Shown here in pieces: positions 3,448-9,057 of a stretch of 33,189 nt of DNA. Position 1 is the stretch's first letter; each line of letters starts with the position of its first letter. Below the pieces are notes generated by a model. That model saw only the letters and a list, made by a program, of their open reading frames with translations. It searched no databases and was not told the DNA's origin. Position numbers and translations under genes: made by a program. The DNA is from Acidimicrobiia bacterium (GTDB lineage: Bacteria; Actinomycetota; Acidimicrobiia; Spongiisociales; ZC4RG35): NCBI GenBank assembly GCA_036524475.1, contig DATDCF010000115.1, positions 1 through 33,189 on the forward strand. The letters run 5' to 3'.

Positions 3448-5967
3448 TCAGAGCGTGGAGCCGAGATAGTTGGCAAGCCGTAGGACATCGGCAAACACAC
3501 CCCCGGCGGTAACGTCAGGTCCGGCTCCCGGTCCCTGGACTACCAGCTGGTTGGTGTTGTAACGGTGGGTACGGAACATGACGATGTTGTCTGTGTGTCT
3601 ACCGCGCGCCAGGGAATGGTCGCTGCCGAGCGACTGTAGGGACACCGAACACCCGAGGTCGGGGTCGATGGTGCCGACGAATCGTAAAACCTCATTTCGT
3701 CGCCTCGCCTCTTCGAAGACCTGGAACATCGCGTCATCGTGGTCTGCGAGGTTGCCGAGAAAGTCCTCCGTTGACCCGAACTCGAGCCCATTGGGGACGA
3801 GTCCCTCGATCTTCACATCGCTGAGGCTGATATCCATGCCCATCTCGCGGGCAAGGATCACAATCTTGCGCGCCACGTCCATCCCCGACAGGTCATCACG
3901 GGGGTCGGGCTCGGTGTAGCCCTCGTCTCTGGCCGAAGAGACGATGCTCGAGAAGGGTTCCGATCCGTCAAAACGGTTGAAGAGATAGGCGAGAGTTCCC
4001 GAGAATATCCCATCGATTCGGTGGATGACATCGCCCGTCTGAACCAGGTCTCTCAGGGTTTGGATAACCGGAAGCGCCGCCCCGACGGTGGTTTCGTAGA
4101 AGTAGTGGGCATCGGCCCGTCGTCCATGCTCTAGCAATTCGCGGTAGTAACCGATCTCGCCGCTGTTGGCCTTCTTGTTAGGAGTTATCACGTGAACCCC
4201 CGCGGCCAGCCAAGCGCCGTAGCGTGCGGCAACGCTCTCGCTGGCCGTGCAATCGATGATGGCGGCATGAGGGACGGCATCGGTGTGGACGAAGTCGACG
4301 AGTCGGTCGAGATCAGCCGGGATTGCGTGCTCGCCGCCCGACATCCGCTCTCGCCACGAAGCCAGGTCGATCTGATTGTCGTCAACGATCATCGAGGTGC
4401 TGTTCGCGATGGCACGTACGCGTAGATCGACGCCGTAATCGTCGCGGAGGCGTTCGAGTTGTCGTTCCATCTGATCGAGCAGAGCAGAACCGATATGGCC
4501 CGGACCGACGAGTCCGATTGAAAGTGTCTGTCTCGACAGGTAGAAGCCGGAGTGAGCAGCCCTCAGTGCTCGGGTTGCCTGGTCGGAGGAGATGACTACT
4601 GAGATATTGCGTTCCGACGACCCCTGAGCGATGGCGCGGATGTTGACCCCAGCGCGCGCGAGGGCTCCAAAGAACTTCGCCGCGATTCCAGGCGTTCCCG
4701 ACATACCGTCACCAACCGCCGCCAATATCACACAATCAGAGGTGATCTCCACTTCCTGGAGTTGCCCGTGCTCCTTCTCGGAGGCGAATGCCTTTTCGAC
4801 GGCTCGTTTGGCTACTTCGCCCTGGTTCTCGGGTGTTGCGAAACAGATCGAGTGCTCCGAACTGCCTTGTGAGATGAGGACGACAGATACGCCGGCACTG
4901 CGTAGCGCCCCGAATAGCCGTTCAGCGATACCGGGAACTCCGATCATGGCCGTTCCTTCGAGGTTCAAAAGCGCAATATCTTCGATCGATGCGAAACCTT
5001 TTACAGGAAGTCTGGAAGCGGGTGACAGATGTACCCGGGTGCCCGGCTGATCAGGTTTGAACGTGTTGCGGATGGTGACCGGAATTTGTTGACGGATTGC
5101 TGGAGCCATGGTCGCCGGGTGGAGAACTTTCGCCCCGAAGTATGCGAGTTCGACTGCTTCGTCATAGGAGAGCTCGGCAAGTACTTGCGCTTGGGCCACC
5201 AGTGATGGATCTGCGGTCATCACCCCGTCCACATCGGTCCAGATGTTGATGTCCGATGAGCCGAGAAGCGCACCAAAAATGGAAGCGGAATAGTCGCTTC
5301 CGTTGCGCCCCAGGGTGGTTGGCGATCCCCTGTCATCGCTGGCGATGTATCCGGTGACGACAACGATTGGCTGCTGATGCTCGGAGAGCCAGGCGTCGAG
5401 TCGGGCGGAACTCTCCGTCCAGTCGACTACGGGCACGGGCTCAGTGTTCTCGACGACGAGCACCTCCCGCGCATCCATCCACGTCGCGGACTCGCCGATC
5501 TGCACCAGGTACGAGGCGAGAGCCTGGGCTGACCATATCTCCCCGAAACCGGAGACGACCCTGATGGCGTTGACGAGGGTGGCTCCCATCGCACTCGATG
5601 CTTTGAGGATGTCTGCGATCGCGTGGAAGTCGTGATCGATGCGGGTGATCAGATCAGAGGCGCCGCCGGCATCGAGCAAGTCTGAAACCAGACCAATTTG
5701 ATGTTCCTTCAGTTCTGCACACTGCCGCACCCATGAACTGTCCCTCCGCCCTGCGGTGTCGACCAGTCGAATCAGTCCATCGGTGATACCTCCCGCGGCG
5801 GATACAACGACCGCTTGATTATCGCCGCGGCCGGCGATAATCGAAGTCGCCTGTCGATACCCCGAGGCATCGGCGAGACTCGTGCCGCCAAACTTGTGTG
5901 TGACCCATCGAGTTTCGCTTGTTTGGTTGTCGACGGTTTTCCCGTCGGATCTTCCTATGTTCATCAA
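3448..5967 (-). CDS. thrA: bifunctional aspartokinase / homoserine dehydrogenase (ThrA-type fusion)
   Basis: 839 aa. The N-terminus has KFGGTSLADA (aspartokinase), the middle has ACT-like repeats, and the C-terminus has LVGPGHIGSALLDQ (NAD-binding) and a homoserine dehydrogenase catalytic region. The start is TTG 5967 or the adjacent ATG 5964. Confidence 0.9.
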   Translation of the reverse strand: MMNIGRSDGKTVDNQTSETRWVTHKFGGTSLADASGYRQATSIIAGRGDNQAVVVSAAGGITDGLIRLVDTAGRRDSSWVRQCAELKEHQIGLVSDLLDAGGASDLITRIDHDFHAIADILKASSAMGATLVNAIRVVSGFGEIWSAQALASYLVQIGESATWMDAREVLVVENTEPVPVVDWTESSARLDAWLSEHQQPIVVVTGYIASDDRGSPTTLGRNGSDYSASIFGALLGSSDINIWTDVDGVMTADPSLVAQAQVLAELSYDEAVELAYFGAKVLHPATMAPAIRQQIPVTIRNTFKPDQPGTRVHLSPASRLPVKGFASIEDIALLNLEGTAMIGVPGIAERLFGALRSAGVSVVLISQGSSEHSICFATPENQGEVAKRAVEKAFASEKEHGQLQEVEITSDCVILAAVGDGMSGTPGIAAKFFGALARAGVNIRAIAQGSSERNISVVISSDQATRALRAAHSGFYLSRQTLSIGLVGPGHIGSALLDQMERQLERLRDDYGVDLRVRAIANSTSMIVDDNQIDLASWRERMSGGEHAIPADLDRLVDFVHTDAVPHAAIIDCTASESVAARYGAWLAAGVHVITPNKKANSGEIGYYRELLEHGRRADAHYFYETTVGAALPVIQTLRDLVQTGDVIHRIDGIFSGTLAYLFNRFDGSEPFSSIVSSARDEGYTEPDPRDDLSGMDVARKIVILAREMGMDISLSDVKIEGLVPNGLEFGSTEDFLGNLADHDDAMFQVFEEARRRNEVLRFVGTIDPDLGCSVSLQSLGSDHSLARGRHTDNIVMFRTHRYNTNQLVVQGPGAGPDVTAGGVFADVLRLANYLGSTL

Positions 5968-6000
5968 TCGGTCCCGTAGTTCTGCAGTCGGCTACCAGCC

Positions 6001-6028
6001 AAAAAAAACCCGCACCGAATGGTGCGGG
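6001..6028 (-). terminator. intrinsic terminator of the thrA leader (attenuator)
   Basis: On the minus strand, CCCGCACC-AUUC-GGUGCGGG is followed by eight U. It ends 33 nt upstream of the thrA start. Confidence 0.75.
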
Positions 6029-6055
6029 ATTCGAGTTGCTTGGCCGTCGAAATGG

Positions 6056-6115
6056 CTAGTGCACAGCGAATCCCTGCCACATTCCGAATGTGGTCGTGGT
6101 GATTCCGGTGCACAT
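6056..6115 (-). CDS. candidate Thr/Ile leader peptide MCTGITTTTFGMWQGFAVH (19 aa)
   Basis: ATG 6115-6113; Ile plus four consecutive Thr codons (AUC ACC ACG ACC ACA, 6103-6089); UAG 6058-6056. It lies between a promoter-like element and the terminator. Too short to appear in the ORF track. Confidence 0.6.
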   Translation of the reverse strand: MCTGITTTTFGMWQGFAVH

Positions 6116-6136
6116 GGCGTATCTCAAGATCACACG

Positions 6137-6165
6137 ACGCTACCCGTGCCGGAGTCACCCGTCAA
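6137..6165 (-). promoter_or_regulatory. putative sigma-70-type promoter for the thrA leader
   Basis: Minus strand: TTGACG (6165-6160), 17-nt spacer, TAGCGT (6142-6137). The implied TSS is near 6130, about 15 nt before the leader ATG. Confidence 0.45.
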
Positions 6166-6502
6166 CAGACTGGCGACGGCCAAGCGCCACTCGGGCATGG
6201 GCTTCGAGCCCTTCCGGCCGGGCGAGAGCGATCACGTCTTGACGTATCGGTGCCGCATCGTCGAGTCGAAGCCACGTCTGAGGTCGTAGAAATGTCGAGA
6301 CCGATAATCCCGCACGGAACCTTGCACTGCCTCCGGTTGGCAGGACGTGGTTAGGGCCAATCCCATAATCAGCGAAAGCTTCGGCAGATCGCTGTCCGAG
6401 GAATATGTGTCGAGAGAGTACCTTGACGGGTTGCAGTTCGCCCGATAGGTTCTCTCCAACATGTTTGGTGCCAACTCGATTCGAATGATGTGTACGGTCT
6501 CC
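6155..6502 (-). pseudogene. hisD: C-terminal relic of histidinol dehydrogenase (about 115 codons, no start codon, N-terminal ~3/4 missing)
   Basis: The minus-strand frame reads ...IFLGQRSAEAFADYGIGPNHVLPTGGSARFRAGLSVSTFLRPQTWLRLDDAAPIRQDVIALARPEGLEAHARVALGR...*. The GxNHVLPTxGxARF, GLSVxxFL and EGLxAHA blocks are HisD hallmarks. The frame is closed upstream by TAG (6505-6503). There is no ATG/GTG/TTG that would give more than 27 aa. Confidence 0.75.
6423..6451 (+). promoter_or_regulatory. putative promoter for the metY-metX leader
   Basis: TTGACG (6423-6428), 17-nt spacer, TAGGTT (6446-6451). The -35 module TTGACGGGT is identical to that of the divergent thrA promoter. Confidence 0.45.
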
Positions 6503-6529: not shown

Positions 6530-6553
6530 AACCAAACCAAAACCAAACGAGAG

Positions 6554-6587
6554 GATCCGCACCGGCGACGGTCGCGGATCTTTTTTT
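6554..6587 (+). terminator. strong intrinsic terminator 60 nt upstream of metY (attenuator terminator)
   Basis: GATCCGCACCG-GCGA-CGGTCGCGGATC forms 11 bp with one bulged C and a GNRA-type loop, followed by TTTTTTT (6581-6587). Confidence 0.8.
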
Positions 6588-6598
6588 ATTACAGATAG

Positions 6599-9057
<2,459 letters not shown>

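Follow-up and report, generated by a model that had tools for sequence, protein, structure and literature searches.

A predicted threonine/isoleucine leader-peptide attenuator upstream of thrA in one small lineage of Acidimicrobiia

The stretch of DNA analysed here (the window: 33,189 nucleotides of contig DATDCF010000115.1, assembly GCA_036524475.1, from an Acidimicrobiia bacterium; GC content ~59%) carries on its minus strand thrA, a gene for a bifunctional aspartokinase/homoserine dehydrogenase I whose nearest named relatives belong to metagenome-assembled genomes (MAGs) of Acidimicrobiia (Actinomycetota). The thrA open reading frame (ORF) has 838/839 codons, starting at ATG 5964 or TTG 5967, and is preceded by a compact unit comprising a putative promoter, a short open reading frame (sORF) rich in Thr and Ile codons, and an intrinsic terminator. 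This unit, which has the anatomy of a leader-peptide transcription attenuator, is the subject of the present analysis. The gene that it would control is a stand-alone thrA, rather than thrABC, and encodes the entry enzyme of the threonine pathway, a biological fit with the amino acids that the leader would sense. Coordinates refer to the minus strand throughout and were read directly from positions 5850–6400; those of the individual features are collected in Table 1.

Loci containing thrA were obtained by exact look-ups of the closest database proteins, by a scan of species-representative genomes, and by a DNA-pattern scan of metagenomes. The leader unit lies upstream of thrA in 8/8 members of one Acidimicrobiia ThrA subclade, the members of which are mutually at least 69% identical; identity to the window ThrA is 87% for locus L001, 84% for L002, 78% for L083, 77% for L084, 73% for L086, and 72% for both L085 and L101. 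Seven copies are full length (the window, L001, L083, L084, L085, L086, and L101), and the eighth, L002, is 5′-truncated because its contig is cut inside the leader. An earlier, sequence-only reading of this window had suggested looking for a Thr-rich sORF plus terminator upstream of thrA orthologues in related genomes, and the unit is present in all eight. The upstream neighbour varies while the unit persists, being hisD, a colicin-V-like gene, an LPG synthase gene, or a formyltransferase gene.

Table 1. Features of thrA and its leader in the window; fractions refer to the seven full-length leader copies
Feature	Coordinates	Strand	Remarks
−35 hexamer TTGACG	6160..6165	-	TTGAC invariant in 7/7 copies; actinobacterial −35 is TTGACn (PMC8079986)
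−10 hexamer TAGCGT, TAnnnT type	6137..6142	-	TAGCGT in 6/7 copies, TACGGT in L086
Predicted transcription start (A)	6130	-	7th nt after the −10; purine there in 6/7 copies
Leader sORF, maximal conserved frame	6056..6127	-	UUG 6127 to UAG 6058–6056; 23 codons plus stop; open in 7/7 copies
Segment 1 (GUGCAC.CGGAAUC.CC)	6101..6113	-	5′ strand of the 1:2 anti-antiterminator helix; pairs with 6073–6061 in the minimum free energy structure of all copies
Regulatory codons AUC ACC ACG ACC ACA	6089..6103	-	Ile-Thr-Thr-Thr-Thr; codons 9–13 of the aligned frame
Small hairpin CCACAUU-CGG-AAUGUGG	6077..6093	-	Overlaps the two final Thr codons; may act as a pause hairpin or form the apex of 1:2
Segment 2 (GC-A-GGGAUUCG)	6067..6077	-	Strand common to the 1:2 and 2:3 helices; nearly invariant
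Leader stop codon UAG	6056..6058	-	Conserved position; UAG/UAA alternation
Segment 3 (CGAAUCCCGC)	6024..6033	-	Alternative partners: segment 2 (antiterminator) or segment 4 (terminator)
Intrinsic terminator	6001..6028	-	CCCGCACC 6028–6021, loop AUUC, GGUGCGGG 6016–6009, U8 6008–6001; −15.9 kcal/mol
thrA, bifunctional aspartokinase/homoserine dehydrogenase I	3448..5967	-	NF006959, 984 bits versus cutoff 726

The promoter hexamers lie where the sequence-only reading had placed them (TTGACG-17-TAGCGT at 6165–6137). Both are kept in all seven full copies, as TTGAC(G/T) and TA(G/C)(C/G)GT, while the spacer between them diverges in sequence and measures 17–18 nt (17 nt in the window). This arrangement corresponds to the experimentally derived actinobacterial promoter consensus of TTGACn, a spacer of ~17 nt, and TAnnnT; in Streptomyces lividans, the distance from the −10 to the +1 is usually 5–7 nt and the +1 is a purine (PMC8079986). 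A scan for E. coli-type promoters did not flag the TTGACG/TAGCGT pair. We infer a housekeeping-type actinobacterial promoter that would produce a leader RNA of ~130 nt from near 6130; the predicted +1 is A or G, with UC, AC, or CC between it and UUG. Given this predicted transcription start, no RTG codon that shares the frame of the Thr run occurs within 4–9 nt past the −10, as a leaderless AUG or GUG start would require.

The 5′ end of the predicted RNA also carries a heptamer, CUUGAGA (6128–6122 in the window, with homologous positions in L001, L084–L086, and L101), that reads CTTGAGA in 6/7 copies and retains AGA in 7/7, although genomes of high GC content ordinarily use AGA only rarely for Arg. 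The heptamer could be a start codon with its context, a weak Shine–Dalgarno (SD) sequence (GAG) for an AUG at codon 5, or a pairing partner of the spacer that follows the leader stop, though none of these fits every copy. We considered, but do not claim, a conserved long-range pairing of CUUGAGA with the post-stop spacer: minimum free energy (MFE) structures of several copies pair the two, but the register of pairing differs between copies.

The leader frame bears the marks of selection at two distinct levels. Its stop codon occupies a single alignment column in every full-length copy (UAG in five, UAA in two), and the sole insertion or deletion within the sORF measures 3 nt (L084), as against 1–2 nt for those in the post-stop spacer and the terminator loop. 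Codons 9–13 comprise 26 Thr, 4 Ile, 2 Lys, 1 Met, and 1 Pro across the seven copies (Thr/Ile 30/34); their first base is A in 34/35 cases and their third bases vary freely among C, G, U, and A. By contrast, third positions do not vary in codons 16–20 (AUG UGG CAG GGA UUC), where the frame runs through segment 2, and this points to constraint at the RNA level. The run codons are thus selected for their identity and the pairing strand for its RNA sequence, which matches the prediction for an attenuator. The Thr/Ile frame holds 5–9 Thr plus Ile codons per copy versus 1–5 in the other frames, and in-frame Thr is enriched over shuffled sequences in every copy (P 0.0002–0.045, the tests being non-independent).

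The composition of the run varies on this conserved scaffold. Each copy has 4–7 regulatory Thr and 0–2 Ile codons, arranged as Ile-Thr4 in the window, Thr-Ile-Ile-Thr-Thr in L085, and Thr-Lys-Lys-Thr-Thr in L086. In the last of these (L086 663–677, leader codons 9–13: ACC AAG AAG ACC ACA), two Lys codons replace Thr/Ile in an otherwise conserved scaffold and may add lysine, another end product of the aspartokinase pathway, as an input. The point of initiation is less uniform than the run. The sequence-only reading had described a 19-codon ORF from ATG 6115 to TAG 6058–6056, which translates as MCTGITTTTFGMWQGFAVH and whose AUG is codon 5 of the maximal frame; the frame, a Thr/Ile run, and the stop are conserved, but the ATG itself is present in only three of the seven copies, whereas an in-frame TTG at 6127 is found in six. 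L083, the sole copy without this UUG, uniquely has an AUG (codon 10) directly before its Thr codons. In each copy an in-frame AUG or UUG thus precedes the run, at differing positions and in none of them with a clear SD.

Downstream of the run, the RNA can adopt mutually exclusive structures. The element GGGAUUCG (6074–6067) is the exact complement of CGAAUCCC (6033–6026), and the helix is extended by GC (6077–6076 with 6025–6024) across a bulged A to 10 pairs in total, in agreement with the pairing that had been noted from the sequence; 6033–6026 in turn overlaps the 5′ arm of the terminator. The terminator, likewise anticipated and conserved in 8/8 copies, is the top match of a terminator scan of the window, and in a stricter scan of both strands of the 33 kb it is the only hairpin with a perfect U-tract. 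Its U-tract ends 33 nt from TTG 5967 and 36 nt from ATG 5964, a non-conserved interval that leaves no room for a separate conserved promoter; across copies, the stretch between terminator and thrA is likewise not conserved and measures 30–74 nt. With the promoter upstream of the terminator and only this unconserved interval before thrA, expression of the gene should depend on readthrough. In L083 (2001–2031), the database start of thrA (848 aa) is an ATG 1 nt past the U-tract, and an ATG ~30 nt downstream aligns with the window start; the database start is almost certainly an over-extension.

Folding of the 141-nt leader gives −56.3 kcal/mol (z = −4.6 against dinucleotide shuffles; 0/200 shuffles as good) and adds an element that the sequence-only reading had missed, segment 1: a long imperfect hairpin spans the sORF and, in the free RNA, GGGAUUC is sequestered by GAAUC.CC (6113–6101). 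The small hairpin is a further addition to that reading. The alternative conformations were evaluated by counting pairs on an RNA-only alignment, with slid partners and 500 shuffles as controls. The terminator-state fold (1:2, small hairpin, and 3:4) is 95.2% paired versus 27–50% with slid partners; three of its pairs change on both sides, and its covariation score is reached by 0/500 shuffles. Within it, 92.9% of alignment cells are paired in the segment 1 helix and 93.9% in the small hairpin, where two pairs are changed on both sides (U-A to G-C; C-G to G-U), and the terminator is 100% paired in seven copies, C-G being replaced by U-A in L086 and L101; its loops vary, and its tail of U6–U9 is conserved. 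The competing antiterminator (2:3) is 98.6% paired versus 13–59% with slid partners, and in L086 it carries a compensatory change of U-A to C-G together with an adjacent U-A to U-G. Changed bases fit both of their alternative partners (alignment column 62 with 26 and 101; column 108 with 54 and 120). Block energies are −14 to −26 kcal/mol for 1:2, −20 to −32 kcal/mol for 2:3, and −11 to −16 kcal/mol for 3:4. As modelled, the architecture is the full classical 1:2/2:3/3:4 design.

The geometry of the leader is compatible with control by a translating ribosome. A gap of 14 nt lies between the regulatory run and segment 2; in each of the seven full copies, exactly 8 nt separate the motif GGGAUYCG from the stop, and segment 3 begins 21–23 nt past the stop. 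Ribosome occupancy was imitated by masking a 28-nt footprint and folding each copy. With the modelled ribosome at the stop, segment 2 is masked and the terminator forms in 7/7 copies; when it sits on the Thr/Ile run instead, and the 3′ arm of the terminator is still to be transcribed, 2:3 forms in 7/7. The 2:3 helix is also the MFE structure of every copy before the 3′ arm exists, and the free full-length RNA adopts 1:2 plus the terminator in every copy. These outcomes agree with the switch that the sequence-only reading had postulated, in which a stalled ribosome permits the antiterminator and a ribosome at the stop permits the terminator.

Taken together, these data suggest that the element is probably a ribosome-mediated leader-peptide transcription attenuator that couples thrA to charged tRNA-Thr and, secondarily, to tRNA-Ile. 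What assigns it to this mechanistic class is a cognate run conserved at the codon level, a terminator situated between the sORF and thrA below the only evident promoter, an antiterminator that excludes the terminator, and a stop placed such that a terminating ribosome would occlude segment 2 and a ribosome on the regulatory codons would not. In the proposed mechanism, a ~130-nt leader RNA would be initiated near 6130, and an sORF of 19–23 codons would be translated through Ile and four Thr codons toward the stop at 6058–6056. When Thr-tRNA is plentiful, the ribosome would reach the stop, its footprint would cover segment 2, segments 3 and 4 would pair, and the polymerase would terminate at 6001. 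When Thr-tRNA or Ile-tRNA is scarce, the ribosome would instead stall on the run, covering segment 1 and melting the small hairpin; segment 2 would then be available to pair with segment 3 as soon as the latter leaves the polymerase, the terminator would be blocked, and transcription would continue into thrA. Were the sORF not translated at all, 1:2 would form first and the terminator after it.

Several observations weigh against this interpretation, and the weak point is initiation. AUG 6115 occurs in only 3/7 copies (the window, L086, and L101), being replaced elsewhere by ACG, CTG, CTG, and ACC, and no canonical start codon is common to all copies. UUG 6127 is present in 6/7, but it lies ~3 nt from the predicted +1 and lacks an SD. 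In mycobacteria, UUG and CUG fail in leaderless initiation, and leadered UUG requires an SD (PMC4633059). The UUG near the predicted 5′ end is therefore a doubtful candidate for the initiator of the leader peptide, and the attenuator model leaves the invariant 5′ CUUGAGA unexplained. The regulatory codons are also few (4–7 Thr); E. coli thrL has 12 Thr/Ile codons, comprising 8 Thr and 4 Ile. On the structural side, covariation is thin, since it is drawn from seven close sequences: the single compensatory pair of the antiterminator is not significant alone (80/500 shuffles), and changes in the 1:2 helix are one-sided (wobble) only. Finally, the free truncated RNA already favours 2:3, so the switch cannot be purely thermodynamic; discrimination must be kinetic, with the untranslated state relying on 1:2 forming first.

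The unit appears restricted to the subclade in which it was found. When the leader-bearing ThrA that diverges most (P0008) served as the seed, a protein search returned a discrete cluster, P0001–P0008, and no further members of the clade. A covariance model built from the seven full-length copies (R1) scores the eight copies at 85–142 bits and everything else in 0.5 Mb of thrA loci at no more than 19 bits; neither this search of ~0.5 Mb nor a filter-off search, covering four outgroup loci, detected divergent copies. A 14.8-bit R1 match in the outgroup locus L105 corresponds to an unrelated His leader. The next-nearest Acidimicrobiia (63–69% identical; L102, L104, L105, L106, and the GTDB representatives L004–L006) are without the leader, and the combination of a Thr/Ile run with a terminator occurs in 0/77 more distant thrA loci, including those of Gemmatimonadota, many Gammaproteobacteria, and Verrucomicrobiota. 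Scanning species representatives with a ThrA alignment yielded 80 loci, four of them from Acidimicrobiia, with the leader in L003 (the same as L001) only.

A pattern scan of metagenomes anchored on segments 2, 3, and 4 returned 14 loci, all of them 23S rRNA fragments or chance matches, from a collection that evidently lacks the JGI contigs of L083 and L085. The matches of the degenerate segment 2/3/4 pattern in L087, L089, L093–L095, and L097–L100 lie in a conserved part of 23S rRNA, indicating that the combination GGGAUUC...GAAUCCCGCAC...GURCGGG is not unique to the thrA leader. Across these searches, the leader is an uncatalogued sequence family confined to one small Acidimicrobiia lineage.

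The genomic setting of thrA differs between the leader-bearing clade and its relatives. Upstream of the leader in the window is a truncated hisD (6155–6400, minus strand) of which the C-terminal ~80 codons remain (PF00815, Histidinol_dh, positions 331–406 of 411, E 1.3e-20), with an in-frame stop further up. The final hisD codons contain the −35 box, and the stop of hisD, TGA (6157–6155), falls between the −35 and the −10. L084 has an intact hisD at this position, as do L086 and L101 to judge by similarity; L001, L083, and L085 have none there. The window thrA is divergent from metY-metX (6647–9057), encoding O-acetylhomoserine sulfhydrylase and homoserine O-acetyltransferase, with metY starting at 6647, and an ammonium transporter gene lies downstream of thrA. 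About 100 nt (6547–6646) separate metY-metX from the hisD remnant, and an Rfam scan found no S-adenosylmethionine (SAM) riboswitch or other Rfam family in that interval. In the leaderless outgroups L004, L102, and L105, thrA follows 8–50 nt behind a gene for a DAO-family oxidoreductase, apparently in one operon. As thrA is free-standing in the leader clade and apparently operonic in these outgroups, gain of the leader coincides with relocation of thrA.

Not all features of the leader demand a ribosome, and a translation-independent RNA switch—answering a ligand, a protein, or uncharged tRNA, with the Thr-rich frame being incidental—would sit comfortably with the ambiguous, non-canonical start codon and with the nucleotide-level conservation, third positions included, of the segment 2 region and the 5′ CUUGAGA. 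The sequence UGGC just 5′ of the antiterminator helix even bears a superficial likeness to the UGGN bulge of T-boxes. We nevertheless consider such a switch unlikely. It does not account for a three-base periodicity that coincides precisely with the Thr/Ile run, where ACN codons vary synonymously and Ile is exchanged for Thr, nor for a positionally fixed UAG/UAA stop and a frame-preserving indel, and the fixed 8-nt gap between segment 2 and the stop makes sense only for a ribosome. Additionally, no T-box (RF00230) or riboswitch match was recovered at E ≤ 10 (5800–6400), the run uses several synonymous Thr codons rather than one specifier, and nowhere in the 70-nt 5′ domain is there a conserved pocket of unpaired bases.

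The adjacency of hisD raises the question of whether the unit serves thrA at all. It might be an unregulated element, either the 3′ end and terminator of a his operon or an independent small RNA (sRNA) gene, with thrA transcribed from another promoter or by constitutive leak-through; hisD does lie upstream in the same orientation, intact in L084 (in L086 and L101 by similarity) and as a remnant in the window, and a strong terminator within a promoter-to-terminator anatomy is sRNA-like. That explanation seems to us quite improbable. The hairpin cannot simply be the end of hisD where a promoter intervenes between the hisD stop and the terminator, and the whole unit, which in every case accompanies thrA, is kept beside it where hisD is absent (L001, L083, and L085) or broken (the window); on these two grounds a hisD terminator was rejected. 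The gap between the U-tract and thrA is unconserved and in most copies too short for a promoter, and a conserved antiterminator and Thr run would have no role in a plain terminator. The neighbouring his genes also bear on a third explanation, that of a histidine attenuator relic in the +2 frame (HRNHHDH in the window). Shifted by one base, ACCACGACCAC yields CAC (His) codons, five His are encoded in the +2 frame of the window, and his genes are adjacent in some relatives. This is scarcely credible, however, as the His count varies from 2 to 5 per copy, the +2 frame has no stop before the terminator, and the element lies downstream of hisD rather than upstream of a his operon, accompanying thrA even where his genes are distant. 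The candidate His attenuator itself (6113–6001, VHRNHHDH...) was rejected because His is unconserved and the frame remains open through the terminator; we judge it incidental.

If the ribosome-mediated attenuator is accepted, a more specific proposal can be entertained, namely that the leader represents an independently evolved thrL-type family in which initiation occurs on a near-leaderless UUG, a mode that the mycobacterial data speak against, and the sensed amino acids are re-tuned by codon swaps on a fixed scaffold. This we hold only tentatively, and think it on balance doubtful. Were it correct, one aspartokinase could be under Thr, Thr plus Ile, or Thr plus Lys control, depending on lineage. 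The outgroup locus L105, which has no thrA leader, contains at 5281–5403 a His leader (MYCSFAHAHHHHHPHRVG, then a stop) upstream of hisG, with 7 His in 9 codons; ~40 nt further on, GCCGACC-GGTA-GGTCGGC precedes a U-rich tail. This textbook leader adds to the biological fit of a thrA attenuator in the class. A 2005 survey had recovered no His attenuators from Actinobacteria (PMC1262725). Taken with this His leader, the proposal would mean that Acidimicrobiia possess a set of classical terminator-based attenuators of the E. coli kind that has so far gone unrecognised. UUG initiation, amino-acid re-tuning, and a wider set of attenuators are each possible on single observations.

The broader interest of the thrA leader lies in where it occurs. 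The usual view assigns amino-acid attenuators of the E. coli type largely to Gammaproteobacteria (PMC3766115), and the present data suggest that the complete design has arisen again, apparently de novo, in a poorly studied, uncultivated actinobacterial class, and that it appeared where thrA became free-standing. The attenuator would imply coupling of transcription and translation in Acidimicrobiia, and may provide a natural test case for the minimum number of regulatory codons and for initiation on very short 5′ leaders. R1 gives annotators a concrete, uncatalogued RNA family and flags an sORF that gene callers miss. Our understanding of the attenuation mechanism itself is unchanged; this would be a textbook mechanism in a new sequence family and a new lineage.

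The leader has no counterpart among catalogued RNA families. Searching Rfam at gathering thresholds identified one tRNA only in the whole window, and Thr_leader (RF00506) gave no match even at E ≤ 10 (5800–6400); the sole leader-type match was to Leu_leader, at 21 bits versus a gathering score of 50 and through the terminator only. No paper linking Acidimicrobiia with leader peptides was found in the literature searched, from which a report may have been missing. The sequence-only reading had called leader-peptide control of a thrA-type gene unfamiliar from high-GC Gram-positives. The mechanism as such is well documented in Actinobacteria, where trp, ilv, leu, cys, and some tRNA synthetase genes are known to be controlled in this way (PMC1262725; PMC8079986; bioRxiv 10.1101/834739). 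What is unreported is a thr or thrA case; the survey of Seliverstov (2005) found no attenuator or RNA control upstream of actinobacterial threonine genes (PMC1262725).

Among the established actinobacterial systems, the trpL, ilvL/ilvB, leuL, and leuS/trpS leaders of Corynebacterium, Streptomyces, and Mycobacterium share with the thrA leader a cognate-codon sORF near the 5′ end, often followed by a hairpin and a U-stretch (PMC1262725; PMC8079986). They differ in sensing Trp, Leu, or Ile/Val and, where leaderless starts have been reported, in beginning with AUG or GUG at +1, whereas here a UUG lies at about +4; compared with them, the thrA leader has an unusually complete set of E. coli-like parts and a canonical U8 terminator. 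A threonine-sensing leader peptide, also named "thrL," has been proposed upstream of thrS in S. lividans (PMC8079986). That peptide (MKRVRPFLETTPGFVPAR) has two Thr codons, no clear Rho-independent terminator, a tRNA synthetase as its target, and no similarity to the thrA leader. The mycobacterial polycysteine sORFs of the "Cys ribulon" are alike in principle, with an sORF near the 5′ end whose cognate run stalls ribosomes and remodels the downstream RNA (bioRxiv 10.1101/834739); they differ in that stalling unmasks a downstream ribosome-binding site, acting on translation, and in their 5′-terminal AUG/GUG starts and their response to Cys.

The closest functional parallel remains thrL of E. 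coli, to whose logic the sequence-only reading had likened this locus and with which both the comparative and the modelling tests agree. Each consists of a Thr/Ile-rich leader peptide, 1:2, 2:3, and 3:4 pairings with a U-tract, and a position before a fused aspartokinase I–homoserine dehydrogenase I, with identical dual Thr/Ile sensing logic. Unlike thrL, the Acidimicrobiia leader has fewer regulatory codons, an actinobacterial promoter, and a predicted 5′ untranslated region of ~3 nt ending at UUG; it precedes a stand-alone thrA rather than thrABC, has no detectable sequence or structure homology to thrL, and belongs to a narrow clade of another phylum. The closest non-actinobacterial ThrA loci, many of them from Gammaproteobacteria, are without the leader, which argues for independent origin rather than co-transfer with the gene. 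The thrA leader thus appears, on sequence grounds, to be an independent invention of the thrL design within one Acidimicrobiia lineage.

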